A stretch of DNA of 64,000 nucleotides from Candidatus Omnitrophota bacterium (GTDB taxonomy: Bacteria > Omnitrophota > Gorgyraeia > Gygaellales > Profunditerraquicolaceae): NCBI GenBank assembly GCA_041650495.1, contig JBAZLB010000004.1:39281-103280 (forward strand), given 5' to 3'. The notes below the pieces were generated by a model. It did no database searches. It was not told the origin of the DNA and saw only the letters and a program-made list of their open reading frames with translations. The position numbers and the translations under genes are program-made. Below are positions 2,502-38,862 of this stretch, piece after piece. Each line of letters opens with the position of its first letter. The stretch's first letter is position 1.

Positions 2502-3458
2502 CTATAGAGAGAGCGCATCGATTATCTTCCTGATCTGTTTTGCCATGACTTTATTAAAACGCGGCCCCGGGTGCCCGTCCAGGGTTCTATCATTAAGCGC
2601 ATCGTTATCAAGCAATTCATAGGCGTTAAAATAGTAGACATTCTTCTGGAAACAATACTGCTTTAACCAAAGGGCATATTTTTCAATACGGTAATCAACA
2701 TCGTAAACGATTACAATTATTTTTGTTTTGTCCTGAGAGATACCCGAAAGAAGCTTATCCAAAGGATACTGTATATATTCCCGGAAGCGGGTTTGTGATA
2801 AATCCCGATATATCCGCGCATATACCTGGCTAAGGGCATACTGAATAATTCTGTTTTTGCTAAAAATCCCGGTAAACGGCCACACAACATAACGATAATC
2901 CGCTTCTATTTGCATTTTTATTTTACGTTCAATAATTGCAGAGGCACAAATATCATTTTTTAAAAAAATCTCAAAAATGATTAACCGGGGCTGGTTTATT
3001 TCGGAAGATTTTAGAAAATACCTACTTACGGAATCACAAACATTATTCCCTGGTAATGAGAGATTTATATAACGCCTTTTTAAATCGCCCTGGTTTAAGA
3101 AATAGGAAATTGTTTCGGCATCACCCGCTCCTACACCGAAAAAGAATGAATCCCCCAATAAAACGACTGGATTCTTATCTTTCTTTGATACTTCAAATAT
3201 ATCCCGTGCACCCAAGGCATTAATATGAGCGTAGAAACGACGGCCAGATGTATCTGTATACGGTATTTCTCCCCCCGGAGAAAACCCCGCCACACAAAAG
3301 TCGTCTTTATTTGGAGTGTAATGAATAGGTTCGATTTTTTTTAAATCGGGAAATCTATATTTTATAAGAAGTTGACATATCAACAGAACCTGGAGTAATA
3401 CACATCCCCCTATGCCTACCAATATAAAAAACCCTATTCTTCTTACAAATGCACTCAT
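2502..3458 (-). CDS. SGNH/GDSL-family hydrolase with N-terminal membrane anchor
   Basis: N-terminal TM helix. Block I is VVLLGDSFFFG and C-terminal block V is LDGHPGPRFNKVMAKQI (DxxH). 318 aa. Confidence 0.6.
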   Translation of the reverse strand: MSAFVRRIGFFILVGIGGCVLLQVLLICQLLIKYRFPDLKKIEPIHYTPNKDDFCVAGFSPGGEIPYTDTSGRRFYAHINALGARDIFEVSKKDKNPVVLLGDSFFFGVGAGDAETISYFLNQGDLKRRYINLSLPGNNVCDSVSRYFLKSSEINQPRLIIFEIFLKNDICASAIIERKIKMQIEADYRYVVWPFTGIFSKNRIIQYALSQVYARIYRDLSQTRFREYIQYPLDKLLSGISQDKTKIIVIVYDVDYRIEKYALWLKQYCFQKNVYYFNAYELLDNDALNDRTLDGHPGPRFNKVMAKQIRKIIDALSL

Positions 3459-3533
3459 TGTACTTGCTAACTCGCTTATTGCTAATCAGCTATTCGATCG
3501 CCATATGGCAGATTTATTTTATTGCCAGGCATG

Positions 3534-5261
3534 TTAACGCAAAAATCTGTAAAGCCCGAACCGGTAGAGATTATCAAGATTTGTTATCAATGTTTGATGA
3601 TTATCGCAATGCTCACAATGTTCATCGTATAATTTAACACCGTTTAAAAAAGTATATCCTTTATTTTCTTTAAGAAATTTTGCTTTTATCCTATACCTGC
3701 GATATTCCCGGGAATTCCAGAGTTCTTTAAAAGACTGCTTGTTCAAATCGCCAACAGTCCTTAAATGACAGCACATACTCACGTCATAGAGGGCCGGTAT
3801 AAGACAAAAATACCATCCTATCGTACATCCCTCTTGAAGAAAAATATCCTTCGACCATGCCCCCGTGTCTTTGTCGTAATGCTCAAGTTGAAACATAATA
3901 TTATCAACGAAATCTATGCCATTCTCCATGAATATTTTAGTCGCAATCGGTAAGTCCTTCTTAATAACTTCTATTTCCCGTTCGCTCAGTTTAAGGGATT
4001 GATTATTATCGTCTAGCCTAATAAGATAGAAGCGGGCAGCATCCGCTCCTATTTCCGCATCAACCTTAGCCATTTCAATAAGTTCGTGATAATTAAGGGC
4101 ATGGATAACATGCGTCATTTTCAGGCGGGGCTCTAATTTACCCTGTTCCTTTCTGATCCGCACCAATGTTTTAAGATTTACTATTATAGTATTAAATGTC
4201 GCCTCGGTGCCGATTGTGGTCACCTGGGCATATGTAGCAGACGTGCCGGATGGAAAGCTGCAATAAATTTCCTTTACCCCCAAATCTATTAATTCCCTTG
4301 ATTCTTTTTCATGAATCAATGAACCGTTTGTAAAAAAAAGTACACCAATATCCTTACTCCGAGCGTATCTAAGCATATCAAAGAATTTATCATAAAGAAG
4401 CGGTTCCCCGTCTCCTTGCAAGATAATACCATCGACCTTAAGCTCTGCAGAATCGTCAATAATGCTTTTAAACTTTTCTAGGCTAAATTTTCGCTCCAAG
4501 AATCCTTCTCTGTGCTGTATAGCTGGGTTATGCACAAAACAATGCCTGCATTGTATATTGCAGCGATGATAAGGATCAAAGACTATTGTCTGCGGCCCTA
4601 TAAAGGCATGCTCGGCGATGACCCCTAATAATCTTACCAGGTCTCTATCTGAAACTTTTTCTCTTTGCATGTGAAACTGAATGATCTGTAAGATTTCAAT
4701 TAACTCCTCATCGCATAAAAATAACTCGATGGAGGCGTTTTCTATTGCCTCCTGTATCCCCCGAATATATTCTATGAAATTGTGGATTATTTTATCAACC
4801 GGAAAGACATTAAAAGACTCCTCCAGAGACCGACAATCAACCCCTTTAAGACGCATACACAGTTTTACCATCTCATTGATACAGAAGAAGTTATGGCGAG
4901 TTACGCCTATCTTAAAAACAACATTTTTATCTAGCACCGCCATTGATTCCAATCGTTTTATTGTCTCATCGAAGGTACCGTCTTTTCCAATTATTCTTTC
5001 ATGCAGTTCATCAAAATGACCAAAGATACATTCATTATCCTGTTTCAACCCGGGATCAAAAGGCAAAAGATTCATTAATATTTCTAACTCGGTGCGATTT
5101 GCCATTATTATATTCATGTATTCATTGAGTCTTTTAGGGTCATTCAGGCGGACAACCACATCATCCAGTCTTTTCAAGATAGTCCGCAGGCTAAGCCTCC
5201 TGGTTCTTATGGATTCTTTACCCCGCACTGTAATCTTTCTCTCCCAAACATTCTTCCTCAT
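3534..5261 (-). CDS. Radical SAM protein, family B (SPASM-like C-terminus) with ~230-aa N-terminal extension
   Basis: CxxxCxxC at HRCNIQCRHCF. The GDGEPLL SAM motif is present. The C-terminal Cys-rich block GCTIGWYFCLIPALYDVSMCCHL...EHCEHCDNHQ matches the paralogs at 21179..22636 and 17294..18502. Confidence 0.75.
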   Translation of the reverse strand: MRKNVWERKITVRGKESIRTRRLSLRTILKRLDDVVVRLNDPKRLNEYMNIIMANRTELEILMNLLPFDPGLKQDNECIFGHFDELHERIIGKDGTFDETIKRLESMAVLDKNVVFKIGVTRHNFFCINEMVKLCMRLKGVDCRSLEESFNVFPVDKIIHNFIEYIRGIQEAIENASIELFLCDEELIEILQIIQFHMQREKVSDRDLVRLLGVIAEHAFIGPQTIVFDPYHRCNIQCRHCFVHNPAIQHREGFLERKFSLEKFKSIIDDSAELKVDGIILQGDGEPLLYDKFFDMLRYARSKDIGVLFFTNGSLIHEKESRELIDLGVKEIYCSFPSGTSATYAQVTTIGTEATFNTIIVNLKTLVRIRKEQGKLEPRLKMTHVIHALNYHELIEMAKVDAEIGADAARFYLIRLDDNNQSLKLSEREIEVIKKDLPIATKIFMENGIDFVDNIMFQLEHYDKDTGAWSKDIFLQEGCTIGWYFCLIPALYDVSMCCHLRTVGDLNKQSFKELWNSREYRRYRIKAKFLKENKGYTFLNGVKLYDEHCEHCDNHQTLITNLDNLYRFGLYRFLR

Positions 5262-7806
5262 AACAACAATTAATAATCTGATGGCAATTTTTATTACATT
5301 TTTTCACTTCTTCCCTGATTTTCTCCGCTGTCTCGGAAAACCATATGTCATAAATATCCCTCTCAAGAACATTCCCGATTGAATCCATCTCTTCGCAGAA
5401 CGTAACATTACCTTTCTCATTGATGCTCAGGAATGAATATCCCATATTGCAGGTGATATGCTTACGGATATATTGATTCGGGTCCGCATAGTACTTTTTA
5501 TAATTCACCAGTTGAGAAACGGGATTGCCTAACTTGTGGTATCCGGACATCTTCATTTCAATTAATTTATCAATGATGTCGTGTAACTGCTGCTTGTCCT
5601 GAGGCCATAACGTTTTACTTCCCGGCCTTTTATACCACCCTGCATCTTTTTCATACCCGCGCGGCTGGATCAAGCCTAAGAAATTTATAAGATTAATCTT
5701 TTTATTCCCTTGGACCCATGTTAAGAGCGGAATAACATCATCCAAATTCTCTTGCAGTATTATCATAAGTAAATTTATTTCTGTTTGCGGGGCATAGCGA
5801 TGCAACAATTCTATTGCCTCCATGACTTTAACATAAGACCCGTCTACGCCCCTTATGAAATCATGCCGCTCCTTATTGAGACTATCTAAAGAAAGCGCGA
5901 TTGTCCGTAACCCCGATTCCCCTATAGATTGCGCCTGCTTTTTATCAATTAAATAGCCATTAGAACATACCGCGGTCAAAAACCCGTTATCATTAGCAAA
6001 TCTAATTAAGTCAGTTAAGCCTTCTTTTAAAAACGGTTCTCCGCCGGCAAAATTTATCTGGCAATGGTTATCGGCTACGCGTTTAAAAGCAAGCAAAAAA
6101 TCTTTCCATTGCCCTGATGTAAGTTCTTCATTGCTATCCTGCTTCCAGATTTGACACATCTTACATCTAAAATTACACCTATATACTATTCCTAATGCAC
6201 AAAAACGCGGCCTTATGATTTCCAGGGCTTCTTGGCGGGATAAATGCTTACTATAAGAACCGGAAGACACGCACGCCAGATCGTAACGGCGCTTCTCCCG
6301 CATCGCTTTATCTAGCTCTCTTTTAAGTTCTTCCCGACGGGGGGCCATCTTTAGGGCTTCCTTCAATTCTCTTATAGCTTCATCAAATTGATGCTGTTTT
6401 AAGAATATGCCGCTTAAGCCGATATACGAATCTATTGATCCGGAGGCTATCTGCCTGAAATCTAAATACAGCTGCTTTGCCTCTTCATACCGATTATATT
6501 GTTTATATATACTCGCTAAGCCGTTCAACGCGCTGATATCTCCGGGATCAATATCCGACATTCTCTTATAGGCTGCTTCAGCTCTATCATAGTCTTTTCT
6601 CTCATAACAAAGTTCCGCTAAACAACCTAACGCTGGCTTACTTCTGCTGTCTATCTTAAGAATATCTTCACATAGCTGTTCTGAGGAATCGTATAGTTTG
6701 TTTTCTTTATAGCAGGCCGCAAGCAGTTCCATTGTTTTTATATCTCCGGGAGAGAGGACTAATATTCTTTCATATAAACCTGCGGCTTTGCCGGGTAGCG
6801 TTTGGCTATAATATAAATCAGCGAGCTGCTTAAGCAATGTTATACAAGCAGGCTCTAAACGTAATCCATGATGATAAAGTGCGATTGCTTTATCGTAACC
6901 GCCGTGTCTCTGATAGGCCTGAGCTAATTTCTCCAGCCATACCAATCTCTCCCCGCCCTTGTTAAAGAACGCCTTAATTAATCTTTCGGCTTCTTTAAGC
7001 CGCTGCTGCTGCAATAAATAATTACCTACTGCAGAGATACCCTCGGTAGTGCTCCTGTCAAGCCTCAACCCTTTGCGATAAACCTTGATGCCTTGGCTTG
7101 TCTTGCCCATTTTCACTAAGGCACCGCCGTGTCTCTGATAGGCCTGAGCTAATTTCTCCAGCCATACCAATCTCTCCCCGCCCTTGTTAAAGAACGCCTT
7201 AATTAATCTTTCGGCTTCTTTAAGCCGCTGCTGCTCTAATAAATAATTACCTACTGTAGAGATACCCTCGGTAGTGCTCCTGTCAAGCCTCAACCCTTTG
7301 CGATAAACCTTGATGCCTTGGCTTGTCTTGCCCATTTTCACTAAGGCACCGGCTAACCCTTTATACACAGGACTTCCTGATGGCATGGTCTTTAATGCCT
7401 TGCGAAACATGTTTTTAGCTTCTTTATATTGCCCAGCCATATCGAGTAAAACCCCTAAATTATACTGGGCCCACCCATGATTTTTGTTTATTAGCAATAT
7501 TTCCTGGCTTAAACGTAGAGAATCGGAATATTGTCCTGTTTGTCTGGAAATATCTGCCAAGCCATACAAGGCTGTTTCGTTTTTCGTATCAAGTGCAATG
7601 GCTTCCTTAAAATACTCTGCGGCCTCTGTATATCTGCTTTGTTCTCTTAAAGTTTGCCCCATAAAAATAAAAACATCGGGATCAGAAGATCCTTTGCTAA
7701 GGATTTCTTTAAAACATTTAACGGCCTCAGTATACTCTCCGGCAAAAAAATGCGACCTACCTCTTGTTTTAAGATCGGAATGGGTTGTTTTGGTTTCTAG
7801 TGGCAT
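5218..7806 (-). CDS. TPR-repeat (~520 aa) fused to family-A radical SAM domain
   Basis: 862 aa. The N-terminal half is TPR-like helical repeats with a duplicated 75-aa segment. The C-terminal half carries FCALGIVYRCNFRCKMCQIW (CxxxCxxC), FAGGEPFL and the terminal motif CNKNCHQIINC shared with the five stand-alone family-A paralogs. Confidence 0.8.
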   Translation of the reverse strand: MPLETKTTHSDLKTRGRSHFFAGEYTEAVKCFKEILSKGSSDPDVFIFMGQTLREQSRYTEAAEYFKEAIALDTKNETALYGLADISRQTGQYSDSLRLSQEILLINKNHGWAQYNLGVLLDMAGQYKEAKNMFRKALKTMPSGSPVYKGLAGALVKMGKTSQGIKVYRKGLRLDRSTTEGISTVGNYLLEQQRLKEAERLIKAFFNKGGERLVWLEKLAQAYQRHGGALVKMGKTSQGIKVYRKGLRLDRSTTEGISAVGNYLLQQQRLKEAERLIKAFFNKGGERLVWLEKLAQAYQRHGGYDKAIALYHHGLRLEPACITLLKQLADLYYSQTLPGKAAGLYERILVLSPGDIKTMELLAACYKENKLYDSSEQLCEDILKIDSRSKPALGCLAELCYERKDYDRAEAAYKRMSDIDPGDISALNGLASIYKQYNRYEEAKQLYLDFRQIASGSIDSYIGLSGIFLKQHQFDEAIRELKEALKMAPRREELKRELDKAMREKRRYDLACVSSGSYSKHLSRQEALEIIRPRFCALGIVYRCNFRCKMCQIWKQDSNEELTSGQWKDFLLAFKRVADNHCQINFAGGEPFLKEGLTDLIRFANDNGFLTAVCSNGYLIDKKQAQSIGESGLRTIALSLDSLNKERHDFIRGVDGSYVKVMEAIELLHRYAPQTEINLLMIILQENLDDVIPLLTWVQGNKKINLINFLGLIQPRGYEKDAGWYKRPGSKTLWPQDKQQLHDIIDKLIEMKMSGYHKLGNPVSQLVNYKKYYADPNQYIRKHITCNMGYSFLSINEKGNVTFCEEMDSIGNVLERDIYDIWFSETAEKIREEVKKCNKNCHQIINCCYEEECLGEKDYSAG
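6901..7350. repeat. Direct tandem duplication, 2 x 225 bp, in-frame, inside the TPR region of the TPR-rSAM gene
   Basis: Sequence 6901-7125 is repeated at 7126-7350 with only about 2 mismatches (ctgcaataaa/ctctaataaa; ctgcagag/ctgtagag). In the protein, ...GGALVKMGKTSQGIKVYRKGLRLDRSTTEGIS.VGNYLL.QQRLKEAERLIKAFFNKGGERLVWLEKLAQAYQRHGG appears twice. Confidence 0.85.
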
Positions 7807-7820
7807 ATAAACAGCCTAAA

Positions 7821-8828
7821 TTAATAAATGTACACTTCTGAAGGGTCAAAATTACAATTGACCATGGATTGACAATTCCGTTTGCACTGCGCTATCTTTT
7901 CCCGTATCATTTCCGCTTTTGAGGAATTCCACACGGTGTTAATATCGTCATATTTAATGTTTCCGATCGGTTCCATGTAAAAACATATCCTTATTTCTCC
8001 CGTAGGAGTTATGTTAATGGCCTGGGTGTCAATATGGCACTTTTTCTGCTTAACAAAGTCATTGGGATTATGAAAATATGCTTTAAATACCTGCAGTTGG
8101 GGCAAAGAATTTCCAAGCTTGTTAAACCCGGATTCTTTCATCTTGATAAGCCCGTTCATAATTTTGTCAACTTTTTTAAGGTCTATAGGCCATAAGGAAC
8201 TATACCGGCTGTCAGTATACCAGTGCAAATCTTCTGGTGTACTAAACGGTTGTGTGATAGCCTGAAATCCCATTCCGTCTATCTTGTCATTCTCCTGTAT
8301 CCACCTGACAATATCCACAAGTTCATCAAGGTTTTCATTAGAAATAACGGTGCATATGCCTATCTTTACATCGCTGCTGTATTTATCCAGAAGCTCGATA
8401 GCCCTCATAACCTTCTGATATGCCCCTCTAACACCGCGGAGAGAATCATGGCGGTCTTCCCTGAGACTGTCTAAAGATATATTCACAGTGGTAACGCCTG
8501 AAGCCGCTATGTTCTCTGCCATTGTCTCATCGATAAGGAAGGCGTTAGTAGCAAGTAACGTAACAAAGCCATGTTTATGGGCATAGTTGATTAATTCCAA
8601 TGTTTCCGCACGTGCCAATGGCTCTCCTCCTGCAAAGTTTATTTGGGATTTATCTTTCATAAGAGAACGTAACGAATCAATAAAATACCTCCAGCGCTCT
8701 ATCGTTGGCTCAAGAGGATCCCGGGCCTTGATATCAGATTTCCACTTATAACACATACGACATCGCAAGAAGCAGCTTTCCAATAACGCTATACAGCAAT
8801 AAACAGGAGCTGATATATTTTTTTGCAT
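7821..8828 (-). CDS. Radical SAM protein, family A (MoaA/twitch-like, ~335 aa)
   Basis: N-terminal LLESCFLRCRMCYKW (CxxxCxxC at residues ~17-24), FAGGEPLA, and C-terminal Cys motif CKRNCQSMVNC. Confidence 0.8.
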   Translation of the reverse strand: MQKNISAPVYCCIALLESCFLRCRMCYKWKSDIKARDPLEPTIERWRYFIDSLRSLMKDKSQINFAGGEPLARAETLELINYAHKHGFVTLLATNAFLIDETMAENIAASGVTTVNISLDSLREDRHDSLRGVRGAYQKVMRAIELLDKYSSDVKIGICTVISNENLDELVDIVRWIQENDKIDGMGFQAITQPFSTPEDLHWYTDSRYSSLWPIDLKKVDKIMNGLIKMKESGFNKLGNSLPQLQVFKAYFHNPNDFVKQKKCHIDTQAINITPTGEIRICFYMEPIGNIKYDDINTVWNSSKAEMIREKIAQCKRNCQSMVNCNFDPSEVYIY

Positions 8829-8881
8829 AGGCCCTACGATACCGTCCTTACCATGCAGTGCATTGATAAATACTAACCTAC

Positions 8882-9877
8882 CTACTCAGAGTCTCCATGG
8901 TAATAACAATTGACAAGAAAATGGCAATTTTTATCACACGCCGCAATACGTCTTTTTACCGTATCTGCTTTCTCTGAAAGCCATATATTCTGCATGGTAT
9001 CATCTTTTATGTTTCCTATGTCCCCCATTTCATCGCATAAGGAAACATGGCCATCCCAAGTGATCCTTATGGCATTGTCACCAAGATGGCACCTGCGTGG
9101 TTTTATGAATCCTTGCGGGTTCATTAAGTATAACTTAAATAATTCGAGCTGATATATCGGATTGCCTATTTTGAAGCCATCATGGTGTGACTGTCTTAAC
9201 GCAATCAACTCATCTATAACAAGGTTTGCCGCATTATTATCACTGGGCCATAAACCGGCGTATTCATCCAGAATATGCCACTCCTCAGGCACATGGGCAT
9301 TAAACGGTTTCTGTATTACCTGAAAGATTACGCCGTCTAACTTAGGATGGTTGTAAACCCATTTTGTGAAATATATTATTTCTGAGATGTTAATACCCAT
9401 GATTATCGTAAGGATATTTATGATAGAATCGGGGCAATAACGGTCAATAAGGTCTATTGCCCGCATAGCCCGATCCCAACAGCCTTGCTTGCCTCTCAGA
9501 TAATCATGCGTATACTTATCAAGGCTATCAAGAGAAATACCGATAGTGTTAACCCCTGCCTGCGATATTTCCCTGACCTTATCCTCATCCAATAAATAGG
9601 CATTGGTGGATAGGCAACTTTTAAATCCTAAGTCTTGACAAATCTTAAGGATCCCCAAAAAATTGTGGTTAAGCAGTGGTTCCCCTCCCCCAAAACTAAC
9701 AAAAAACGGGTCTTCTACAAAATCCCGCAGTTCATATAAGAATTTTTTATAGGCCTTAAGATCAAGCCAGTTTGTTTCATGGAATGAACGGGTATCCTGC
9801 CAGATATGGCACATTTTACACCGCAACATACACTGGTGGGATATCGCTATATCGCAATGTCTTGGCTTATATATCAT
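8882..9877 (-). CDS. Radical SAM protein, family A
   Basis: ISHQCMLRCKMCHIW, FGGGEPLL, C-terminal CDKNCHFLVNC. Its start overlaps the upstream gene stop by 4 nt (ATGA coupling). Confidence 0.8.
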   Translation of the reverse strand: MIYKPRHCDIAISHQCMLRCKMCHIWQDTRSFHETNWLDLKAYKKFLYELRDFVEDPFFVSFGGGEPLLNHNFLGILKICQDLGFKSCLSTNAYLLDEDKVREISQAGVNTIGISLDSLDKYTHDYLRGKQGCWDRAMRAIDLIDRYCPDSIINILTIIMGINISEIIYFTKWVYNHPKLDGVIFQVIQKPFNAHVPEEWHILDEYAGLWPSDNNAANLVIDELIALRQSHHDGFKIGNPIYQLELFKLYLMNPQGFIKPRRCHLGDNAIRITWDGHVSLCDEMGDIGNIKDDTMQNIWLSEKADTVKRRIAACDKNCHFLVNCYYHGDSE

Positions 9878-11364: not shown

Positions 11365-11373
11365 GTCTTATTA

Positions 11374-12381: not shown

Positions 12382-12410
12382 ACTGACCCCCTCCTAAACA
12401 CATAGCCATG

Positions 12411-13457: not shown

Positions 13458-13460
13458 GGG

Positions 13461-14456: not shown

Positions 14457-14465
14457 GTCTTATCC

Positions 14466-16199: not shown

Positions 16200-16231
16200 G
16201 GATCGGCCTACTGCGAAGTATGATTATCGTT

Positions 16232-17278: not shown

Positions 17279-17293
17279 GGAAGATATATTATC

Positions 17294-18502: not shown

Positions 18503-18518
18503 GCCATCAGGGATACTT

Positions 18519-20981: not shown

Positions 20982-21044
20982 TATGATAAAAAGGCGGTGT
21001 CTATGTTTAACTTTTTGCAGATTCTTTGTGCTTTATCTTATCTT

Positions 21045-21107
21045 TCAACCCACAAGAACCCTATCCGCCACATAATATACTTTAAGCCCCGGTAAAAAGA
21101 GTAACAT
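21045..21107 (-). CDS. Candidate 20-aa small ORF (MLLFLPGLKVYYVADRVLVG) in the only sizeable intergenic gap of the rSAM array
   Basis: ATG preceded by GAGGG at -6 to -10. It lies in the 197-bp gap between the family-B rSAM and the class-B rSAM. There is no Cys and no homolog support. It is a speculative precursor-peptide or leader candidate. Confidence 0.15.
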   Translation of the reverse strand: MLLFLPGLKVYYVADRVLVG

Positions 21108-21178
21108 AAGCCGCCCTCTTTATAATGCTTTTTCCATCTCTGCAATAGTGTTTCTCGCATGGTAAGTATATTTATTTA

Positions 21179-22636
21179 TTACAGGAACTTCTCCAGCGAG
21201 TATCTTTTAATAATCTTGAGCATATGAAGATGCTGATTAATGTTCTCGCAGGAATGGCATTTGTCATCAAATAACTCTTCTCCGCGGACAAACCTAGTCC
21301 CTCCTTCCTGTTCTAAACGTTTTGCTGCAATTCGATACGAATTGTACTCATCAGAGAACCATATAGTATCAAAATCAGATCTTTGCAAGCTGCCGACCAT
21401 TTTGTTTCCGCAGCAAAAAAGAACCTCCCCTGCCGCCTGGATGTTACAGAATACCCACCCTGTTAAGCACCCGTTATCTTTAAAAAAATCCTTCGTCCTT
21501 AACCCATCGCGGTTGTTATAGTAATCCAAATAAATAGTGGATAAATGATCTGTCCTGATCCCGTGGTTTTCTAATTTTTTTATTGACGCTGGCAAGTTAG
21601 TCTTGAGATAATCAACCTGCGGTTCGGTTAATTTAAGATAAGCATTGTGTCCTTCAATCTGAATTGGTTTAAATGTCACCGCATCGACCCCAAGGTCAAT
21701 ATCCATATCCACAAAGCTTGACAAATCGTAACAATTAAGACTATGTATGACATGGGTTATCTGAATCTGGGTCGTCCCTTTTGAGGTGTTTTTATATTCT
21801 ACAAGCGACCTTATATTATGCCTGATCTTTTCAAAATCGCTCATTGGGCTCATTGGGCAGATTTGATGGTATCGCAGCCTAGAGGCAGCAGGAAGGCTAA
21901 CCGTAACAATAGCTATTCCGGAATCAACCATCAGTTTTGAAAGCGCATCATTCATAAAAACCCCGTTGGTCACTGTCTCAAACCCCAAGCCATTATCCCG
22001 GCAGATACGGATAGCATCTTTTATATTCGGGTGCATCAGCGGTTCGCCGTTGGCAAGCAGGCTTATCTGTCGTGTACCTATTTTCTTCGCCCTCACTGCA
22101 ATATTTCTAAACATATCGATACCCATCGTCTGCCGGAGATAGGCGATATCTTTCTCCTGGGTACTCGGCGCATGAATCCAACAATGCAAACAATTAGTAT
22201 TGCATCTATGCAACAAGTCAACGACAACTAAAGACGGGCCGATAAACGTATCTTCACAAATAGCGCCTAGCGCCATTAAAACATCCTGCCTGGTATCGTC
22301 ATCAGTCTCTTTTATCTTGCTTAGACCTAAAAGCAGCTGCGCCAATTCCCGGTCATCCAATAGAATTTGGATACAAAATTTGGAAAGCCTGGCATTCATT
22401 GTACTGATATATTCCATCCAACGCATTAGTATATTATCCGTAGGAAAGACTGAGAAAGGATCGACCTCCTCCACTGCGGGCATTCTTTCGCGTAACAAGC
22501 AATCCAGTCTTAAGAAATTGTATTTATTCGCTCGCAATAATCCTGCCGCTGTTTTGTAAAAACCGCCCTTACTATTAAGGGTACAATGAGAACGCTCTGC
22601 AAATTTGAGGTATCGTGCGGATAAACCAGGCAACAT
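21179..22636 (-). CDS. Radical SAM protein, family B (SPASM-like) with N-terminal extension
   Basis: LHRCNTNCLHCW (CxxxCxxC), ANGEPLMHP. The C-terminus is GCLTGWVFCNIQAAGEVLFCCGN...DDKCHSCEN. Its N-terminal region is alignable to the N-terminus of 3534..5261 (AEHAFIGPQT / CEDTFIGPSL). Confidence 0.75.
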   Translation of the reverse strand: MLPGLSARYLKFAERSHCTLNSKGGFYKTAAGLLRANKYNFLRLDCLLRERMPAVEEVDPFSVFPTDNILMRWMEYISTMNARLSKFCIQILLDDRELAQLLLGLSKIKETDDDTRQDVLMALGAICEDTFIGPSLVVVDLLHRCNTNCLHCWIHAPSTQEKDIAYLRQTMGIDMFRNIAVRAKKIGTRQISLLANGEPLMHPNIKDAIRICRDNGLGFETVTNGVFMNDALSKLMVDSGIAIVTVSLPAASRLRYHQICPMSPMSDFEKIRHNIRSLVEYKNTSKGTTQIQITHVIHSLNCYDLSSFVDMDIDLGVDAVTFKPIQIEGHNAYLKLTEPQVDYLKTNLPASIKKLENHGIRTDHLSTIYLDYYNNRDGLRTKDFFKDNGCLTGWVFCNIQAAGEVLFCCGNKMVGSLQRSDFDTIWFSDEYNSYRIAAKRLEQEGGTRFVRGEELFDDKCHSCENINQHLHMLKIIKRYSLEKFL

Positions 22637-25518
22637 TATGAGCAGTCTCCAAGCATTATTTCACCGTGAAAATAGTGATACTTACCTTCTGCCAGTTTTT
22701 GCTTATCCGTGGCGTTGATACTCTCAAATCCCAACTTTCTGCTTTTGAAGATACGATTTGTATTCTCCACGGTTGCAGTGATGCCGCCAGGGCCGCTAAA
22801 GCAGGAAAAGGACAGGCCGGGTAAAATATCCGCTCCTTGCCCCTGCTGTTTGATGCCAGCGCTCAAGCGGTCAATCTCATCCCGGGCATAAAGAATATCC
22901 CACCGCGATACAGCATAACTATCCGGGAATGATCCGGACATATTATCAGCCGCACGCCAATGGTTATAGATACCGGAAAGCATAATATTAGCCTGTTGTT
23001 TTATTATTGTGGTTGATTCAAAAATCTCCATTTCGACATCCCAAATGAAACCATTTGTTTTATTTTTAACCTCCCATACCTGCACCAAAGGGATATATGG
23101 CCACGTCCCTCGCAGTAACAAACTGTCCTTACGGGAAGCGATTATCTCCCAGCTGGCATCCAAAGAAACGTACCACTGGCCCTGGTTGTTATGTCCTTTC
23201 GAGTAAACCGAGGTATAGAGACCAAAGGCGCTGGTAATTTCTTCGTTGCGATGCTTTATTCTCCCGTTCCCCCGGTCAAAAATAAATATATACGGACCAT
23301 TCTCAATGGTTGATCTTTTACGTACGGACGGGGCAAGACACGAAGATAATTCAACGCCTCTTTTCTCTATAATATACCCCTTCAGATCGGGCTCCGTGCC
23401 AATGGTTATTGAGAAATCCCCGGCTAAATATGAACCTTTAAAATAATTTATTGATTCTTTTGAATCTATACTCATAAAATAAAGGTGGTTTGCTAACTCA
23501 GTATTTCCTGAGGCATCTGCGAATACAGTCGCATTCCAGTCTAACTTTCTTTCCAGAGAATTAAATTTAGGGGGCCGGGAAGCGTCATGTATCAATACCG
23601 CCGGTAAAGCTGCGTTATCCTGCCCTGATGATGTCAAACCAAGGATATGCAGCAAATCATTCTTCATGAGCGTACTCTTAAAATCCTGACCGGTTATATC
23701 TTCACCTGTATCACCGGACTCACTACTGGTAAACCATCCCCGGTAATCCGCAGAAAACATTACTCGAAATTCATTGTTTCTAATTACCGTGTCTTCTAAA
23801 ATCACTAAGCGGACCTGGCAAGTAATGGTATTGTTACCTGCGATTTTAAAATCCCATATTTGTTGTATAGGTAACCCCGGCCATCTGATATAAACCGAAA
23901 GGCGGGCTGCAGAGACCCGGTGTATCATCCAGAAGGCATCGGAACTCTGGTATTCCTTACCTTGGTAATAAAAACTGGTTTTAAACCCCTTTCCGGCGGT
24001 TATCTTTGCCCCTCTCCAGTATAAATGGATCATCTTGTCATTATATGCATGTAACAATACAGTATCGTCCTTGCCTTGAATAATCTTAGGCAACATTAAT
24101 TTAGGAAAATTCTGGAGCCTATGAGTAAGTAAACGTTTGTTTCCAACCATAATTTTCAAGTGAAACAACGTACTTTTTCCGGATTCAAGACTCAAAGATT
24201 GCGCATCAGGATTGATAATACGGGATTGCAAAGCCCGGGCCATAAATACCTGGTTGGTATTATGGACTTCTAATAATTTAGTATCGGTATACACCTCGTC
24301 TATGAAAGCGATCGATGGTAATTGGGAACTAGGCCCTCCAGGCGCATTCAAGCCGATGAAATTAACAGCCGGTATTTGTTTGTCCGCGCATTGCCAAAAA
24401 ATCTCCTCTCTCAAATCGCTTGTCTCAAAGCACCCATTTATGAAAGGATTGAACCACTGCCTATATTCATCCCTTAACATGATACAGGCCGTAAATTCGT
24501 CAATTACACACGCCTGGCGAATATTCATTTCTATTACACAGTCGATTACACCCGCATCATTATCAAAGTATATTTCCCATACCTGCGAAAGCGGTAAATG
24601 CCACATTGTCCCTTCCACAACTATCTTGCTATCATCCCGTTTTCTTAACAGCCAATCTGCCTGAAAAGAACAGTGCTGGTTACCTGCGCTTAATATGGAT
24701 ATGTACCCTCCCAATCCGGCAGTTATTGTATCCTGGCCGAAACTAAACGAGAGTTTCCCATTATTAAAAATAACGCCCAATGAGTCCTTTTGGAGCATGG
24801 CGATGCCCCGCTTATCACCTACCGTCTCCAGGTAATATGAACAAACCTCCCTGATCCCTCCGTCTTGAACCACCTTTCCGTCTTTAAGTAAGACCCCCCT
24901 GGAACAAAAACGTTTCGCTATTTCTAAATTATGAGTAACCAGGATTATCGATTTCCCTTTCTCCTTGAGTTTAAGCATCCTGTCTATGCATTTACGCTGC
25001 GCATACAAATCACCCACAGCAAAGATGTCATCGATCAATAGGATGTCCGGCTCAATGTGTATCGCTATAGCAAACGCCAAGCGCATATACATGCCTTGTG
25101 AATAACTCTTCACGGGCGCATTAATAAACCTACCGAGGGCGGCAAACTCTACTATATCATTAAACCGTGATTTTATCGCATGCTTAGCAAGGCCGAACAG
25201 TGATGAAATAAGGTAAATATTCTCTTTGCCCGTTAACTCCGCATGGAATCCTGCCCCGATATTAAGAAGCGGGGCGATCGTCCCATTGATAAAAACACTG
25301 CCTGTATCAGGCTTAAACATACCGGCGATTATCTTAAGAAGAGTGGTTTTGCCAGCGCCGTTATCGCCGATAATACATACACTCTCTCCTCTTGGAATAT
25401 CTAACGTTACTCCCTGCAATGCCCAGAAGTCTTCCGGGAAGATTTTGTTATCTTCTTTAAAGTCTATTCTGTATTTTAAACCCACGCCCCTTAAAGATAC
25501 TGCATTCATCGATCTCAT
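22636..25518 (-). CDS. ABC transporter ATP-binding protein, Wzt/TagH-like, with ~700-aa C-terminal triple-repeat domain
   Basis: The N-terminal ~240 aa carry Walker A GDNGAGKTTLLK, the signature-region LSGGMYMR-like block YSQGMYMRLAFA, and Walker B ILLIDD. The remaining ~700 aa hold three divergent ~200-aa repeats each containing a W..P.(L/I).Q(V/I)W(E/D) core. The gene start overlaps the upstream stop by 1 nt. Confidence 0.75.
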   Translation of the reverse strand: MRSMNAVSLRGVGLKYRIDFKEDNKIFPEDFWALQGVTLDIPRGESVCIIGDNGAGKTTLLKIIAGMFKPDTGSVFINGTIAPLLNIGAGFHAELTGKENIYLISSLFGLAKHAIKSRFNDIVEFAALGRFINAPVKSYSQGMYMRLAFAIAIHIEPDILLIDDIFAVGDLYAQRKCIDRMLKLKEKGKSIILVTHNLEIAKRFCSRGVLLKDGKVVQDGGIREVCSYYLETVGDKRGIAMLQKDSLGVIFNNGKLSFSFGQDTITAGLGGYISILSAGNQHCSFQADWLLRKRDDSKIVVEGTMWHLPLSQVWEIYFDNDAGVIDCVIEMNIRQACVIDEFTACIMLRDEYRQWFNPFINGCFETSDLREEIFWQCADKQIPAVNFIGLNAPGGPSSQLPSIAFIDEVYTDTKLLEVHNTNQVFMARALQSRIINPDAQSLSLESGKSTLFHLKIMVGNKRLLTHRLQNFPKLMLPKIIQGKDDTVLLHAYNDKMIHLYWRGAKITAGKGFKTSFYYQGKEYQSSDAFWMIHRVSAARLSVYIRWPGLPIQQIWDFKIAGNNTITCQVRLVILEDTVIRNNEFRVMFSADYRGWFTSSESGDTGEDITGQDFKSTLMKNDLLHILGLTSSGQDNAALPAVLIHDASRPPKFNSLERKLDWNATVFADASGNTELANHLYFMSIDSKESINYFKGSYLAGDFSITIGTEPDLKGYIIEKRGVELSSCLAPSVRKRSTIENGPYIFIFDRGNGRIKHRNEEITSAFGLYTSVYSKGHNNQGQWYVSLDASWEIIASRKDSLLLRGTWPYIPLVQVWEVKNKTNGFIWDVEMEIFESTTIIKQQANIMLSGIYNHWRAADNMSGSFPDSYAVSRWDILYARDEIDRLSAGIKQQGQGADILPGLSFSCFSGPGGITATVENTNRIFKSRKLGFESINATDKQKLAEGKYHYFHGEIMLGDCS

Positions 25519-25534
25519 CCCGTGTGTACGTGCC

Positions 25535-26317
25535 TCAGATTTGTTTTAAAGCATCCTTCTCTTTTTTCGTGAATATGTAATGGCCCAGCCATATGCTCGC
25601 CAAGCTAAATCCAAACGCAAACAACCACATAACGCTGTCTCCTTTTGAGCCGTTATAAAGTATAGCGCGATAAAGAAGGGTATAACAGGTAGCTGGATTT
25701 GCAATCATAATAACCTGATGCCCCTTTGAGATACTTTCTAAAGGGTAAAATATGGGGGTCAACCAAAATAAAAACATTAAACCAATATTCAATAACTGCG
25801 CTAAATCCTTATAATAGAGATTACCGATGCTTACCATGAGCGATATGCCCAATGTAAAAACAAAGTGGAGCAGCAGGACGAGCGGCAATAATGCTAAGGA
25901 ATTTATGATTCTGGTATTACATAGAATAAAAACGGGCAAGAGACCTATAAAACCAACTAAAAAATTTACAAAGTTTGCTAAAACCACCGAGAGGGGTATT
26001 GCCTCATTCATAATAACGAACTGATTTAATACGGCACTATTATTCTTAATGGAAACTGCCGCTTCTGATAATGAGTTTGCAAAGAAAGACCAGGCCAAGA
26101 GAGCACTCAATATAAAAAGGGGGAAATTACTTATCCGGGTAGGCATTATTTGTGTGAAAACGAAGTTAATGGCACACATAATAAGCAGGGGATTAAGAAC
26201 TGCCCAAAAAATACCTATGGTAGAGCCAATATATTTATCACTTAAATTACGCTGCACCAGGCTCTTAATTACGTTTTTCTGTGCGCTTATCTTAACAAGT
26301 TTATCTCGTAGAGTCAT
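25535..26317 (-). CDS. ABC-2 type transporter permease (Wzm/TagG-like)
   Basis: 260 aa with 6 predicted TM helices in the ABC-2 arrangement. It lies directly upstream of the Wzt-like ATPase. Confidence 0.7.
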   Translation of the reverse strand: MTLRDKLVKISAQKNVIKSLVQRNLSDKYIGSTIGIFWAVLNPLLIMCAINFVFTQIMPTRISNFPLFILSALLAWSFFANSLSEAAVSIKNNSAVLNQFVIMNEAIPLSVVLANFVNFLVGFIGLLPVFILCNTRIINSLALLPLVLLLHFVFTLGISLMVSIGNLYYKDLAQLLNIGLMFLFWLTPIFYPLESISKGHQVIMIANPATCYTLLYRAILYNGSKGDSVMWLFAFGFSLASIWLGHYIFTKKEKDALKQI

Positions 26318-27015
26318 TGGTAAATATGAAAATACTCCTTTAAAATAGCGGATGCAATATTCTCCGCTAAAAGCCGATTTCCTTTTTTAGTACAATGCCC
26401 GAAGTTTCCTGCGAACATATCAACAAAATACTCTCTGTAGCTTTCTCTTTTTATTGCCTTCTGAAAGATCCCCTCATTATCTACAAAGATGATACCGTCT
26501 TGCTGTCCAGCAAAGATCCCCTTTAATGATGCCAAACTCCGAAGCGGATACTGGACACAAACCAATTGTATTTTATTTTTACTTAATATTCCCCTGATCT
26601 TATGGTAATTGCTATATGTCTTTGTCGTAATATTATGCCTAAAAAGTTTATCAACTTTTTTGGCATATTTACTCGCTACAGTATCCATCCCCATTTCATT
26701 GTATACTACAGCCAGCCCCCCATACGCATAATCTTGCAACGGATCTACCTTGGCCGCCTGGTTAAATGTCTCTATAGCCAAAGTAAACTTCCTTTCGGAA
26801 ACATAGTTTTCGCCTAATACAACATACGCCCAATAGTCTCTCGGATCCAGCTCTATGGCTTGTTTTAGCGACACCTCGGATGCCGGATATTTCCCCTGGT
26901 ATCTATAACACTGCCCCAACAAAAAATACGCTTTGCCGTTTTCCGGATTTAAGGCAACGGCTTTCTTCAATGCCTCTTCGGCGTCTGGATAATTATAATT
27001 ATAGATAAACGCCAT
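26314..27015 (-). CDS. C-terminal part of a split SGNH-TPR protein (TPR repeats plus SGNH block V)
   Basis: TPR-like repeats (AEEALKKAVALNPENGKAYFLLGQCY...). The C-terminus carries FVDMFAGNFGHCTKKGNRLLAENIA, which resembles SGNH block V (DxxH). The frame stays open for ~19 codons upstream of its ATG into the preceding ORF region. Confidence 0.5.
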   Translation of the reverse strand: MAFIYNYNYPDAEEALKKAVALNPENGKAYFLLGQCYRYQGKYPASEVSLKQAIELDPRDYWAYVVLGENYVSERKFTLAIETFNQAAKVDPLQDYAYGGLAVVYNEMGMDTVASKYAKKVDKLFRHNITTKTYSNYHKIRGILSKNKIQLVCVQYPLRSLASLKGIFAGQQDGIIFVDNEGIFQKAIKRESYREYFVDMFAGNFGHCTKKGNRLLAENIASAILKEYFHIYQ

Positions 27016-27068
27016 CGCTAAACCTATATAGGCCTCATCATTCTGAGGGTTTATCTCTATTTTCTTCT

Positions 27069-28121
27069 TTAATAGGCTTCTATTTCAGTAATCTTGCCTC
27101 TGTCCCTATAAATCCGTACCAGCTCAAGATATGGCCGAGGATCTTCCGGGCCACTCTCTATAGCTTTCTGCAGTGGCTCCTCCGCAGGAAAATATCTGCC
27201 TTGGTCGATATAGCATCTCCCCAATAGAAAATATGCCATATCATTTTTCGGATTCAACACAAGAGCCCTTTTAAGGGCATCCTCCGCTTCACGGTATCGA
27301 CCCTGGGAATGATAAAGTTGAGCTAACTCAATATATATTACATCGTAACCCGGCCTCAGTATTAGAGCTTTTTGCAGCAGCCTTTCATATTGGATATAGT
27401 CTCCTAGGTCGCGATATCCCCGCCCTAAACCAATATATTCTTCTGCCTGCTCTTTGTTGACATCTTGTGCGCCGCGCATAGAATCTCCATAACTAAAATA
27501 ATTGCCGCGCTTAATATAACTCTTACGTGGATCACTGAGGCCGGAAATGGGCGGAAACCCGTTTATCTCTTGCACGCTGGGGATCCGACAAGCCAGTTTT
27601 TTCGCCATAACATGCTCCCTCAACAGTATCAATAATTTATAGACCTTCAAAGACTGCAGATAAGAAATTATTTTATCTTCCGATGTTCGTTGGTTCACAA
27701 TATGCCTGGACCTATCGTTGATACCAAGCATCGCCACCACTATATCTGGTTTATACTTCGCAATGTTTTCTTCTAAATGCAAAGCTACATATGAAGTATC
27801 AATATCAGGAATGCCTTTATTAATTACACTAAATCTTAATCCTTTATTATTTTGATTTAATACAACTTCGAGTTGACTGGGGTAGCAACTTTCGCCGCCT
27901 ATCGCATACGCAGTCGTCGATTCCCCAACGCACATAATGCGATATGAGCTTTTCTGCTGCAGAGAAATCCTGTTTCTTCCTTCCTGTAAAGATGAAAATA
28001 TAAAACCTGCTAAACGCATCCCGGCCTCCAGAAAGACAACGCCAAGGCATATCCCTGCGATAATAAGTGCTGTCTTCTGGCAGAGAGATATAGCGGACGT
28101 ATGAGTATTATTACAGCGCAT
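27069..28121 (-). CDS. N-terminal part of a split SGNH-TPR protein (TM anchor, SGNH blocks I-III, TPR repeats)
   Basis: TM helix. Block I is IMCVGESTTAY, block III is VAMLGINDRS, followed by TPR repeats (YIGLGRGYRDLGDYIQYERLLQKALILRP...). It stops at 27069-27071, whereas the downstream TPR/SGNH-block-V ORF is open in another frame from about 27072. This suggests a frameshift (true pseudogene, sequencing error or recoding). Confidence 0.5.
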   Translation of the reverse strand: MRCNNTHTSAISLCQKTALIIAGICLGVVFLEAGMRLAGFIFSSLQEGRNRISLQQKSSYRIMCVGESTTAYAIGGESCYPSQLEVVLNQNNKGLRFSVINKGIPDIDTSYVALHLEENIAKYKPDIVVAMLGINDRSRHIVNQRTSEDKIISYLQSLKVYKLLILLREHVMAKKLACRIPSVQEINGFPPISGLSDPRKSYIKRGNYFSYGDSMRGAQDVNKEQAEEYIGLGRGYRDLGDYIQYERLLQKALILRPGYDVIYIELAQLYHSQGRYREAEDALKRALVLNPKNDMAYFLLGRCYIDQGRYFPAEEPLQKAIESGPEDPRPYLELVRIYRDRGKITEIEAY

Positions 28122-32147: not shown

Positions 32148-32228
32148 AAAAAACCGCCACCTGACTTTAAAAGCCAGATGGCGGCCCGACCATCCAAGTC
32201 CTCCGGAAATATACCCTTCCGGACCCTT
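32148..32228 (-). terminator. Conserved two-hairpin element, copy A; distal hairpin plus U6 is an intrinsic terminator for treT
   Basis: Minus-strand RNA: hairpin UCCGGAA-GGGUAUA-UUCCGGA, then conserved core GAUGGUCGGGCCGCCAUCU, then hairpin CCGCCAUCUG/CAGGUGGCGG (10 bp with 1 G-U) followed by UUUUUUAUU. Confidence 0.7.
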
Positions 32229-38338: not shown

Positions 38339-38419
38339 AAAAACCACCACCTGCATTCATATGCAAGATGGCGGCCCGACCATCTTAAAAATAACCTCTG
38401 GAGGCAGCTATCTCCAGAC
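38339..38419 (-). terminator. Conserved two-hairpin element, copy B; terminator downstream of the tRNA-Val/tRNA-Asp unit
   Basis: Same architecture as copy A, with an identical 19-nt core (gatggcggcccgaccatc on the plus strand). The flanking hairpins are conserved in structure with compensatory changes (UCUGGAG/CUCCAGA; CCGCCAUCUUGC/GCAGGUGGUGG), followed by UUUUUGAUUU on the minus strand. Confidence 0.65.
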
Positions 38420-38778: not shown

Positions 38779-38862
38779 GAACAGCAGGATATAGATTTTA
38801 AGCTAAAGTCCTGTTTTTTGCAACAGTTATTTACCCCTAGCTTAAACACTCAAAAATTTCTA

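Follow-up and report, generated by a model that had tools for sequence, protein, structure and literature searches.

Radical-SAM gene arrays beside a Wzm/Wzt-class exporter in Candidatus Omnitrophota and other microbes: a probable surface-glycoconjugate system

A 64,000-nucleotide stretch of a Candidatus Omnitrophota genome (GenBank assembly GCA_041650495.1, contig JBAZLB010000004.1, positions 39,281 to 103,280 of the forward strand; hereafter the window, with positions counted from its first letter) carries a dense array of genes for radical S-adenosylmethionine (SAM) enzymes. All eleven radical-SAM genes verified with Pfam lie between positions 3534 and 22636, alongside Wzm/Wzt exporter, SGNH hydrolase and glycosyltransferase genes (G1 to G19, Table 1). 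We consider it probable, if well short of certain, that the region is a member of a conserved, widespread Wzm/Wzt-dependent surface-glycoconjugate system in which radical-SAM enzymes, as an ordered set, remodel the lipid-linked product within the cytoplasm before it is exported.

Each of the eleven proteins matches PF04055 (42-89 bits, cutoff 29.5) and contains the CxxxCxxC motif, as an initial annotation of this DNA had proposed. Six of them (G8, G11, G12, G14, G15 and G16), here called family A, are paralogs with 37-43% mutual identity and one is fused to TPR repeats, again as first annotated. With an alignment of these six paralogs as seed, we scanned 185,579 species, each represented by one genome, and recovered 69 loci, most of them in metagenome-assembled genomes of Candidatus Omnitrophota, some labelled Planctomycetia in third-party assemblies. 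The remaining loci are labelled Woesearchaeota, Aenigmatarchaeota, Nanoarchaeota, unclassified archaea, 'Methanosarcinales' (a third-party label), Patescibacteria, Margulisiibacteriota and, in a few cases, Deltaproteobacteria. BLASTP comparison of the window proteins with the open reading frames (ORFs) of these loci revealed a recurring same-strand order: Wzm, Wzt, a G5/G17-type, a G6-type and a G7-type radical-SAM enzyme, then a run of 3-15 family-A paralogs. G13-type B12-binding radical-SAM genes and SGNH genes frequently accompany this cassette. A tally of 68 loci gave Wzt within 10 kb in 34, G6-type genes in 41, G5/G17-type in 37 and G7-type in 22, nearly all on the same strand; many loci lie on truncated contigs and these counts are lower bounds. 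The number of family-A genes per locus has a median of 4 and a maximum of 15 in the 68 loci, and the total number of radical-SAM genes per locus reaches 17. Searched against 1.84 billion representatives from public metagenomes, the family-A profile matched 1,141 distinct clusters at 50% identity (E<=1e-30).

The initial annotation had suggested comparing the neighbourhood of the family-A expansion across genomes, and in the 69 loci the order of family-A subfamilies is indeed kept from genome to genome. Clustering 311 family-A domains by pairwise identity, we found the subfamily order A-A-(A)-D-C-H-E-L-K-J, whole or largely, in eight loci and A-B-A-F-G in seven. The window itself reads A-A-A-d-B-Q, to be compared with A-A-B-Q in locus L001 and A-A-d-B-A-F in L002. 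We regard the paralogs as ancient. This retained order indicates that the paralogs may have distinct, ordered roles. Since they are conserved, collinear and non-redundant, we argue that each enzyme would have its own step or site.

The association between exporter and radical-SAM genes stands in both search directions. When three Wzt homologues were selected solely by their similarity to G4, two (L073 and L075) proved to lie in loci where Wzm-Wzt is directly followed by radical-SAM genes. In the third (L074), a PF00953 phosphotransferase gene and an FAD oxidoreductase gene lie ahead of Wzm-Wzt, and the gene after it is cut by the contig end and has no Pfam record.

Several further features of the related loci were recorded. 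Two or three family-A radical-SAM-SPASM domains are naturally fused in some proteins (1,284 aa in L075, 15815-19669; 1,034 aa in P0121; P0121-P0129). The contig of the closest relative (CAZYCL010000005.1) holds two such arrays, L001 and L016, about 45 kb apart, one resembling the window and the other containing a phosphoglycosyltransferase gene, an FAD oxidoreductase gene and the small conserved ORF described below. In L075, five genes separate the cassette from a same-strand gene for a 45,887-aa protein (L075:1-1966), and in L073 a single gene separates it from a same-strand gene whose product is at least 3,008 aa long and includes a Peptidase_S74 domain (L073:1-8470), which we take to be the intramolecular-chaperone domain of tailspikes and endosialidases.

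Both sequence and fold searches place the exporter in the Wzm/Wzt (TagGH) class. The best PDB match of the G4 ATPase domain is Aquifex aeolicus Wzt (E 5e-61, 209 bits), followed by TarH, TagH and mycobacterial Wzt, with the next ABC class at about 109 bits. The G3 permease matches PF01061 at 41.7 bits and its best PDB match is A. aeolicus Wzm (E 1.5e-19), then TarG; the two genes are separated by 16 nt. The earlier description of the pair as an ABC-2 exporter of the O-antigen/teichoic-acid type is thus upheld. Transporters of this class move polyprenyl-diphosphate-linked polymers that have been finished in the cytoplasm, and the cytoplasm is the only compartment in which Fe-S/SAM enzymes can work.

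The 720 residues downstream of the G4 ATPase domain consist of three repeats (approximately residues 240-480, 480-735 and 735-960) of a domain of about 200-235 aa that we call domain X. The same domain makes up residues ~60-320 of the radical-SAM enzyme G6, which matches the three Wzt repeats in BLASTP with E values of 2e-13, 2e-5 and 1e-3. With a hidden Markov model (HMM) built from the four window copies, domain X was found in relatives in 27 Wzt proteins, with one to eight copies each, in 25 G6-type proteins, at the N- or C-terminus, and in 20 G5/G17-type proteins, with one to three N-terminal copies. By these similarities, domain X appears to tie the core radical-SAM enzymes to the exporter. 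Pfam has nothing matching domain X in any of 43 members, even at E<=1, and the domain X profile has no PDB sequence match; likewise, Wzt residues 240-960 have no Pfam match, and the alignment of G4 to full-length A. aeolicus Wzt ends at the ATPase domain. Word-indexed homologue searches with a single domain X sequence or with the 43-member alignment returned no matches, the domain being too divergent for 5-mer seeding.

An AlphaFold2 model of G4 based on a 95-sequence alignment (mean predicted local distance difference test score 89, predicted template modelling score 0.80) shows each domain X copy as all-beta, with about 17 strands; when only the four window copies were used, the domain X model was unusable (local score 33). 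The near-invariant positions of the domain are mostly aromatic or polar (W60, W85, Y122, W125, F134, N189 and R197), a composition that is common in sugar-binding sites and may hint at such a site here. Domain X also sits where the carbohydrate-binding domains of Wzt proteins normally sit. We infer that it could be a polymer-binding module or, alternatively, a docking module that assembles the radical-SAM enzymes on the transporter. Archaeal cassettes (L039, L045, L059, L060 and L066) have long Wzt proteins too (461-746 aa), and the domain X model detects none of their C-terminal extensions, which are either very divergent or a different module.

The genes accompanying the cassettes are overwhelmingly of glycan-assembly families across the 68 loci. 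Among 114 further ORFs within or beside the related cassettes, Pfam identified GT2 (12) and GT4 (9) glycosyltransferases, FAD oxidoreductases (10), SGNH proteins (9), PF00953 WecA/MraY-type phosphoglycosyltransferases (7), PMT_2 (GT-C) proteins (6), O-antigen ligases (3) and NDP-sugar epimerases/dehydratases (2). A PF00953 WecA-type gene adjoins the cassette in seven sister loci and in L074. The nearest named family of the FAD oxidoreductase is UDP-galactopyranose mutase, at a score far under cutoff. The 25 most frequent families of these 114 ORFs include no PqqD or RiPP recognition element (RRE; RiPP, ribosomally synthesised and post-translationally modified peptide), no peptidase, no YcaO or lanthipeptide family and none of lipid synthesis.

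In the window, the GT4 gene of the earlier description was confirmed, as was its GT2 pseudogene, of which only fragments in different frames are left. Three or four SGNH genes had been called; there are three and not four, since two of the candidates, G1 and G2, are parts of one gene. G10 is a clear member with GDS and DGLH motifs, the G1+G2 protein is marginal with GES in block I, and G18 is marginal as well. G9 has no Pfam, NCBIfam or PDB match; it aligns in two weak collinear BLASTP segments (E 6e-5) with the PMT_2 protein of L040, and homologues of G9 occur in L002, L033 and L040.

The initial annotation had left open whether an exported glycan or a membrane lipid is tailored. Comparison strongly supports the glycan part of that proposal, through the conserved association with the exporter, the Wzm/Wzt class of that exporter, the glycan-assembly neighbours and the shared domain; the lipid part finds no support in the gene neighbourhood. 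The alternative that the radical-SAM enzymes modify membrane lipids or the polyprenyl carrier (compare Tes/Mss, Grs, Hbs and HpnJ-type enzymes), with the ABC-2 pair flipping the lipid, must nevertheless be weighed against the enzymes themselves.

None of the nine radical-SAM proteins scanned (all but G12 and G16) reaches the cutoff of a curated NCBIfam family. Family-A proteins score about equally, at 50-96 bits against cutoffs of 180-650, with NirJ/Ahb, GeoRSP, MoaA, PqqE, viperin, Tes and sactipeptide maturases, the best scores being 70-96 bits against cutoffs of 265-650. By PDB sequence matches, the family-A profile is closest to SkfB, a sactipeptide maturase, and next to the tetraether-lipid enzyme GDGT-MAS/Tes (7TOL, 1.7e-16); BlsE, DesII and MoaA also match. 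A full SPASM domain is defined by PF13186 and seven cysteines (CX9-15GX4C ... CX2CX5CX3C ... C). PF13186 reaches its 21.5-bit cutoff in eight of the nine radical-SAM enzymes that are not of the B12 type, G8 scoring 21.2 bits, and family A conserves only five C-terminal cysteines (C264, G277x4C282, C315x3C319x5C325). In its C-terminal Cys-rich region, family A has a weak alignment to the twitch domain of BtrN, and the auxiliary domain may be a twitch-like one or a SPASM in reduced form. Of the three larger radical-SAM-SPASM enzymes, G5 and G17 are paralogs (31.5% identity over 428 aa) and G7 is more distant. A known cofactor pathway (MoaA, PqqE, NifB, NirJ/Ahb or mycofactocin) was rejected as an explanation: all scores are far under cutoff, the HMM searches put the paralogs in no curated family, and the partner genes are absent.

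Two B12-binding class-B enzymes had been called in the window. One of them, G13, exceeds the PF02310 cutoff of 32.1 bits (40.3 bits); the other, G6, falls just under it (30.4 bits) yet can be aligned to the HpnJ and BchE models along 420 residues. By the presence of an N-terminal B12-binding domain both are predicted to be class B (cobalamin-binding). The best NCBIfam match of G13 is a RiPP C-methyltransferase family (113 bits, cutoff 282). For G6 it is HpnJ (TIGR03471; 263 bits, E 5e-78), followed by BchE (175 bits), and its best PDB match is AprD4, an aminoglycoside diol-dehydratase (1.2e-25). A third B12-type radical-SAM enzyme, encoded beyond the window start, also has HpnJ as its best NCBIfam match (153 bits). 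G6 is not an HpnJ orthologue, since the equivalog cutoff is 577.6 bits, and neither the window genes nor the accessory families that recur in the related loci include hopanoid genes. The methylation that had been proposed for the class-B enzymes is not borne out for G6, whose nearest characterised relatives, HpnJ and AprD4, are enzymes that rearrange sugars and not methyltransferases. The reaction proposed for HpnJ turns the glucosamine ring of a glycosylated hopanoid into a cyclitol by contraction (PMC9204698), and the relationship of G6 to HpnJ is the sole hint of the chemistry that might take place. The C-C bond formation, epimerisation and oxidation listed by the initial annotation are guesses.

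Set against these results, lipid tailoring appears very improbable. The second place of 7TOL among the family-A matches and the closeness of G6 to a hopanoid enzyme would agree with it, and Mss and Hbs homologues have been reported in Omnitrophota (bioRxiv 10.1101/2023.10.20.563219). However, the proteins reach just 32-68 bits against the NCBIfam Tes cutoff of 450 and remain far below the HpnJ cutoff, the 25 most frequent accessory families include none of lipid synthesis, and the exporter is of the polysaccharide class with long C-terminal beta domains; moreover, HpnJ itself acts on the sugar head group and not on the lipid. A ladderane or GDGT (glycerol dialkyl glycerol tetraether) lipid cluster was rejected on the same evidence. 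The Elusimicrobia nitrogenase-paralog radical-SAM locus was discarded as a model as well, there being no nif-like genes in the array.

A different possibility is that the family-A enzymes act on soluble nucleotide-sugars, as do DesII and BlsE, to give exotic monosaccharides that are later polymerised and exported, so that only the core enzymes with domain X touch the polymer. The family-A proteins are compact and without domain X, their PDB matches include BlsE, DesII and MoaA, and the glycan context suits this account as well as it suits remodelling of the assembled product. Yet up to 15 distinct, ordered family-A paralogs are far beyond the needs of any known nucleotide-sugar pathway, nucleotide-sugar genes are few (the epimerase family in 2 of the 114 ORFs), and the natural joining of two or three family-A domains in one protein suggests that they work processively on a single large substrate. 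We therefore consider monomer-level action unlikely.

The largest gap in the array is 197 nt, between G5 and G6 (20982-21178), and the initial annotation saw no precursor peptide in the region. This overlooked a 40-codon ORF in the gap that encodes a basic, aromatic-rich product with about 10 aromatic residues and two conserved Cys. GenBank does not annotate it, the flanking genes having consecutive accessions. Homologues of 47-51 aa (consensus MAETNWQKFVKHCKNGGLFYALYRGFKYLAWRNQCARKKIDWRQFSR) are present in 11 related loci, always between a G7-type gene and the first family-A gene. Among the relatives dS is saturated and dN is 0.04-0.4, with a dN/dS (nonsynonymous to synonymous substitution rates) of about 0.09 where computable; because this is purifying selection, the micro-ORF is a real gene.

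Such a gene is what would be expected if the cluster made a RiPP, in which the radical-SAM-SPASM paralogs install crosslinks or other modifications on a ribosomal peptide, for instance this 40-51-aa micro-protein, and the ABC-2 pair provides export or immunity. It is the evident precursor candidate and bears directly on the condition under which the initial annotation would have given up its reading, an unmistakable precursor gene consistently beside homologous arrays. Consistent with this are its position, in 11 loci, immediately upstream of where the family-A genes begin, its copy in the window gap, its selection, its aromatic residues and cysteines, the match of the family-A profile to SkfB and that of G13 to the RiPP C-methyltransferase family. 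On the other hand, the ORFs abut and leave no space for the small gene in seven loci with the same family-A order, and most of the 68 loci lack it. The micro-protein motif also occurs inside the G6-type protein of L001, between two domain X copies (E 7e-6), which suggests a structural or adaptor element and not a substrate. Neither an RRE/PqqD protein nor a leader peptidase nor a peptidase-domain (C39) transporter is found among the window proteins, and the 25 most frequent accessory families are equally devoid of them. Family-A proteins open directly with the radical-SAM core, leaving no space for an N-terminal recognition domain, and the transporter is specifically of the Wzm/Wzt class amid glycan-assembly neighbours. 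A double-glycine leader reading of the micro-protein was rejected: it does not fit the leader consensus and there is no C39 transporter. A likeness to the N-terminus of G6, seen by eye, was not detected by HMM search at E<=0.01 and is not relied upon. Taken together, these tests weaken the peptide explanation, which we judge quite improbable, and we treat the micro-protein as an optional adaptor or membrane-associating element.

We thus return to export of a remodelled glycoconjugate, for which the following sequence of events can be envisaged. First, GT4 and GT2 enzymes would build a polyprenyl-phosphate-linked glycan at the cytoplasmic side of the membrane, from a WecA-type initiator that is known from several sister loci and not from this window. 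Second, the radical-SAM enzymes would alter the glycan or its sugars, the core G5/G17-, G6- and G7-type enzymes followed by the collinear family-A series; this would have to precede export, because oxygen-sensitive, SAM-dependent enzymes can only work in the cytoplasm. Third, domain X on the core enzymes and on the Wzt C-terminus might bind the same polymer epitope or dock the enzymes onto the transporter. Fourth, the finished polymer would be exported by Wzm/Wzt. Finally, membrane-anchored SGNH, CE4 deacetylase, GT-C-like and glycoside-hydrolase-like proteins may act outside the cytoplasm.

A number of observations weigh against this scheme. No initiating phosphoglycosyltransferase gene was found in the window or the next 10 kb, and the window contains no sugar-nucleotide pathway gene and no recognisable chain terminator. 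Wzt was recovered in the fetched flanks of just half of the 68 loci, many of the others being truncated contigs or very long arrays. Domain X has no detectable sequence relation to known Wzt carbohydrate-binding domains and is equivalent to them in position alone; three fold searches were dominated by the ATPase domain and gave no fold class for it. The family-A enzymes themselves carry no domain X, and their best PDB match is the peptide-modifying SkfB. The micro-ORF takes the position of a RiPP precursor in 11 related loci and in the window gap, and the pairing of a radical-SAM-SPASM enzyme with an ABC-2-type exporter is also typical of sactipeptide clusters. Lastly, gene content, conservation, gene order, the association in both search directions, the transporter class and the shared domain are observed, and the substrate, the order of steps, the chemistry and the role of domain X are predictions.

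Among known systems, the closest in transport are the O-antigen exporters (A. aeolicus WzmWzt and that of Escherichia coli O9a) and TarGH/TagGH. With these the array shares a Wzt-type ATPase and Wzm-type permease by sequence and fold, a C-terminal Wzt extension at the position of the carbohydrate-binding domain and glycosyltransferases in the locus, and its sister loci add a WecA-type initiator and an O-antigen ligase. In contrast to them, the array Wzt ends in a larger domain, present three times here and one to eight times in relatives, that has no detectable sequence relation to their carbohydrate-binding domains and is also fused to radical-SAM enzymes. We know of no O-antigen or teichoic-acid locus with 5-17 radical-SAM genes, and literature searches turned up none.

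Comparison with the hopanoid HpnI-HpnK-HpnJ pathway (glycosylation, deacetylation and radical-SAM ring contraction to a cyclitol ether) reveals glycosyltransferases and a deacetylase on both sides, a sugar attached to a lipid, and HpnJ as the common best match of G6 and the third B12-type enzyme. The array differs in scoring below the HpnJ cutoff, in lacking hopanoid genes, in its Wzm/Wzt export and in having a CE4 deacetylase, HpnK being of the YdjC type. Aminoglycoside radical-SAM enzymes (AprD4, BtrN and GenK) likewise have sugars as substrates, and AprD4 and BtrN are matched by G6 and, weakly, by family A; these act on small-molecule antibiotic intermediates, however, in a single copy per pathway and with no Wzm/Wzt export.

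The sactipeptide and ranthipeptide clusters (skf, sbo-alb) resemble the array in their SPASM/twitch radical-SAM enzymes and adjacent ABC exporter, and a subset of array loci has a small conserved ORF. The array lacks an RRE, a protease and an obligatory precursor, whereas its exporter is of the polysaccharide class and its context is glycan assembly. Finally, the lipid suites with multiple radical-SAM enzymes (Tes/Mss, GrsA/B, Hbs, Hgm and Cds) also combine several radical-SAM-SPASM and B12-type enzymes, each acting on a defined position of one large amphiphilic substrate, and Cds and HpnJ rearrange sugar head groups. Their genes are mostly dispersed or in small clusters, unlike the arrays, where a glycan exporter adjoins as many as 15 same-family paralogs whose order is fixed, and the array radical-SAM enzymes reach none of their curated models at cutoff.

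The initial annotation took the array for a system not yet described, and this agrees with our results: no NCBIfam cutoff is reached, GenBank names are generic (MFA5090192-MFA5090202 are called 'radical SAM protein', 'ABC transporter ATP-binding protein' or 'hypothetical protein') and full-text literature searches found no description of a combined radical-SAM array and Wzm/Wzt system. The nearest literature concerns giant Omnitrophota proteins, GDGT-modifying radical-SAM enzymes and the Elusimicrobia nitrogenase-paralog radical-SAM loci, all of them different systems. A radical-SAM tailoring module within ABC-transporter-dependent glycan biosynthesis, together with the shared domain, is apparently undescribed, and to our knowledge radical-SAM chemistry on polysaccharides is almost unknown.

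If the glycoconjugate assignment is right, radical-SAM genes are the dominant content of a conserved surface-glycan export cassette that spans a phylum of uncultured, often ultra-small or host-associated bacteria as well as DPANN archaea and some Patescibacteria. This would mean new enzyme families, a new domain linking tailoring with export, and a cell surface of unusual chemistry, which could bear on host attachment or on resistance to enzymes and phages. There is a substantial, though less than even, chance that Omnitrophota, several DPANN archaea and some Patescibacteria make a new class of exported polymer, whose sugar backbone is rewritten by up to about 15 radical-SAM enzymes (possible changes being contraction of rings to carbocycles, crosslinks of the C-C or ether kind, or C-methylation) into a hydrolase-resistant coat, with domain X coupling modification to export. 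That would open a new branch of glycobiology and radical-SAM enzymology. For genome mining, the results advise caution: dense radical-SAM-SPASM arrays in these phyla are probably not RiPP clusters.

The features of the array are collected in Table 1. As first described, every real ORF between 28121 and 1 lies on the minus strand, but the same is true of all real genes in the entire 64-kb window, and unidirectionality is therefore no special mark of the array. The intergenic distances, from the low-coordinate end, are 112, 75, -44, 14, 53, -4, 9, 29, 3, 9, 32, 15, 16, 197, -1, 16, -4 and 53 nt. The claim that gaps are mostly under 30 nt with a single 197-bp exception holds in that 10 of the 18 are 30 nt or less or overlapping and 197 nt is the largest, and fails in that this gap is not empty. 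Beyond the window start, a second assembly of the same contig shows that the cluster goes on for about 7.2 kb, with unrelated genes thereafter. This extension encodes the secreted glycoside-hydrolase-like protein, a second GT4, a 519-aa protein that matches no family, the third B12-type radical-SAM enzyme and a CE4 polysaccharide deacetylase, bringing the full cluster to 12 radical-SAM genes.

Table 1. Features of the array in window coordinates, from the upstream end
Feature	Description	Position	Strand	Basis
GT2 fragments	GT2 glycosyltransferase pseudogene, fragments in different frames, upstream of array	28278..29074	-	Pfam
G1	N-terminal membrane helix, N-terminal half of SGNH domain, TPR repeats	27069..28121	-	Lipase_GDSL_2 32.7 bits (cutoff 32.9), TPR families
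G2	TPR repeats, C-terminal half of the G1 SGNH domain	26314..27015	-	Pfam, second assembly
G3	Wzm-type ABC-2 permease	25535..26317	-	PF01061, PDB match A. aeolicus Wzm
G4	Wzt-type ABC ATPase, 960 aa (ATPase, residues 1-235), three tandem domain X copies	22636..25518	-	
G5	Radical-SAM-SPASM, 'B' type	21179..22636	-	Pfam, NCBIfam, BLASTP
Micro-ORF	40 codons, unannotated, MRETLLQRWKKHYKEGGLCYSFYRGLKYIMWRIGFLWVER	21041..21160	-	hmmsearch E 1.1e-18, small-ORF clustering
G6	820 aa, domain X (residues ~60-320), B12-binding-like, radical-SAM	18519..20981	-	Pfam, NCBIfam, PDB, BLASTP
G7	Radical-SAM-SPASM, 'B7' type, conserved core member	17294..18502	-	Pfam, NCBIfam
G8	Family-A radical-SAM-SPASM/twitch paralog	16232..17278	-	Pfam
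G9	Polytopic membrane protein, possibly GT-C-fold glycosyltransferase	14466..16199	-	Weak similarity to PMT_2 protein
G10	Membrane-anchored SGNH/GDSL hydrolase	13461..14456	-	PF13472 60.2 bits
G11	Family-A radical-SAM	12411..13457	-	Pfam
G12	Family-A radical-SAM	11374..12381	-	Pfam
G13	B12-binding (class B) radical-SAM	9874..11364	-	PF02310 40.3 bits, PF04055
G14	Family-A radical-SAM	8882..9877	-	Pfam
G15	Family-A radical-SAM	7821..8828	-	Pfam
G16	TPR repeats fused to family-A radical-SAM	5218..7806	-	Pfam
G17	Radical-SAM-SPASM, 'B' type, paralog of G5	3534..5261	-	Pfam, NCBIfam
G18	Membrane-anchored SGNH-like, weak	2502..3458	-	PF13472 24.7 bits, below cutoff
G19	GT4 glycosyltransferase	1208..2389	-	PF13692, PF00534
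GH-like	Start of 712-aa secreted glycoside-hydrolase-like protein, running off the window	1..1194	-	

Some genes differ between assemblies of the contig. In the ENA assembly G1 and G2 are called as a single gene of 568 aa, with about seven TPR repeats inserted into its SGNH domain; in the window the gene is split by a 1-nt indel, which is either a frameshift or a sequencing error in one assembly. The TPR part of G16 contains a 225-bp tandem duplication (6898-7351, 2.0 copies, 98% identical). The ENA assembly has one copy of this repeat, giving a protein of 787 aa as opposed to 862 aa in the window, and the duplication is therefore a strain or assembly variant. G15 is called as a shorter gene in another assembly.

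The GC content is 0.38-0.44 over the first 40 kb of the window (1-40 kb), array included, and 0.46-0.51 over 40-64 kb, with tRNA-Asp and tRNA-Val genes (38702-38937) at the step. This step, together with the spread of the cassette across phyla and domains, hints that the array lies on horizontally acquired DNA. The nhaA-I RNA motif (Rfam RF03057), which we take to be a Na+ riboswitch, was matched twice above its gathering score, at 32176-32226 (minus strand) and 38366-38421 (minus strand), with 46.7 and 43.8 bits. One match lies upstream of an Rnf/Nqr-like gene and an ion-symporter gene and the other upstream of an MscS channel gene and a trehalose synthesis operon (OtsA-like, OtsB and TreT-like); together the two look like a putative salt-responsive osmoprotection regulon.

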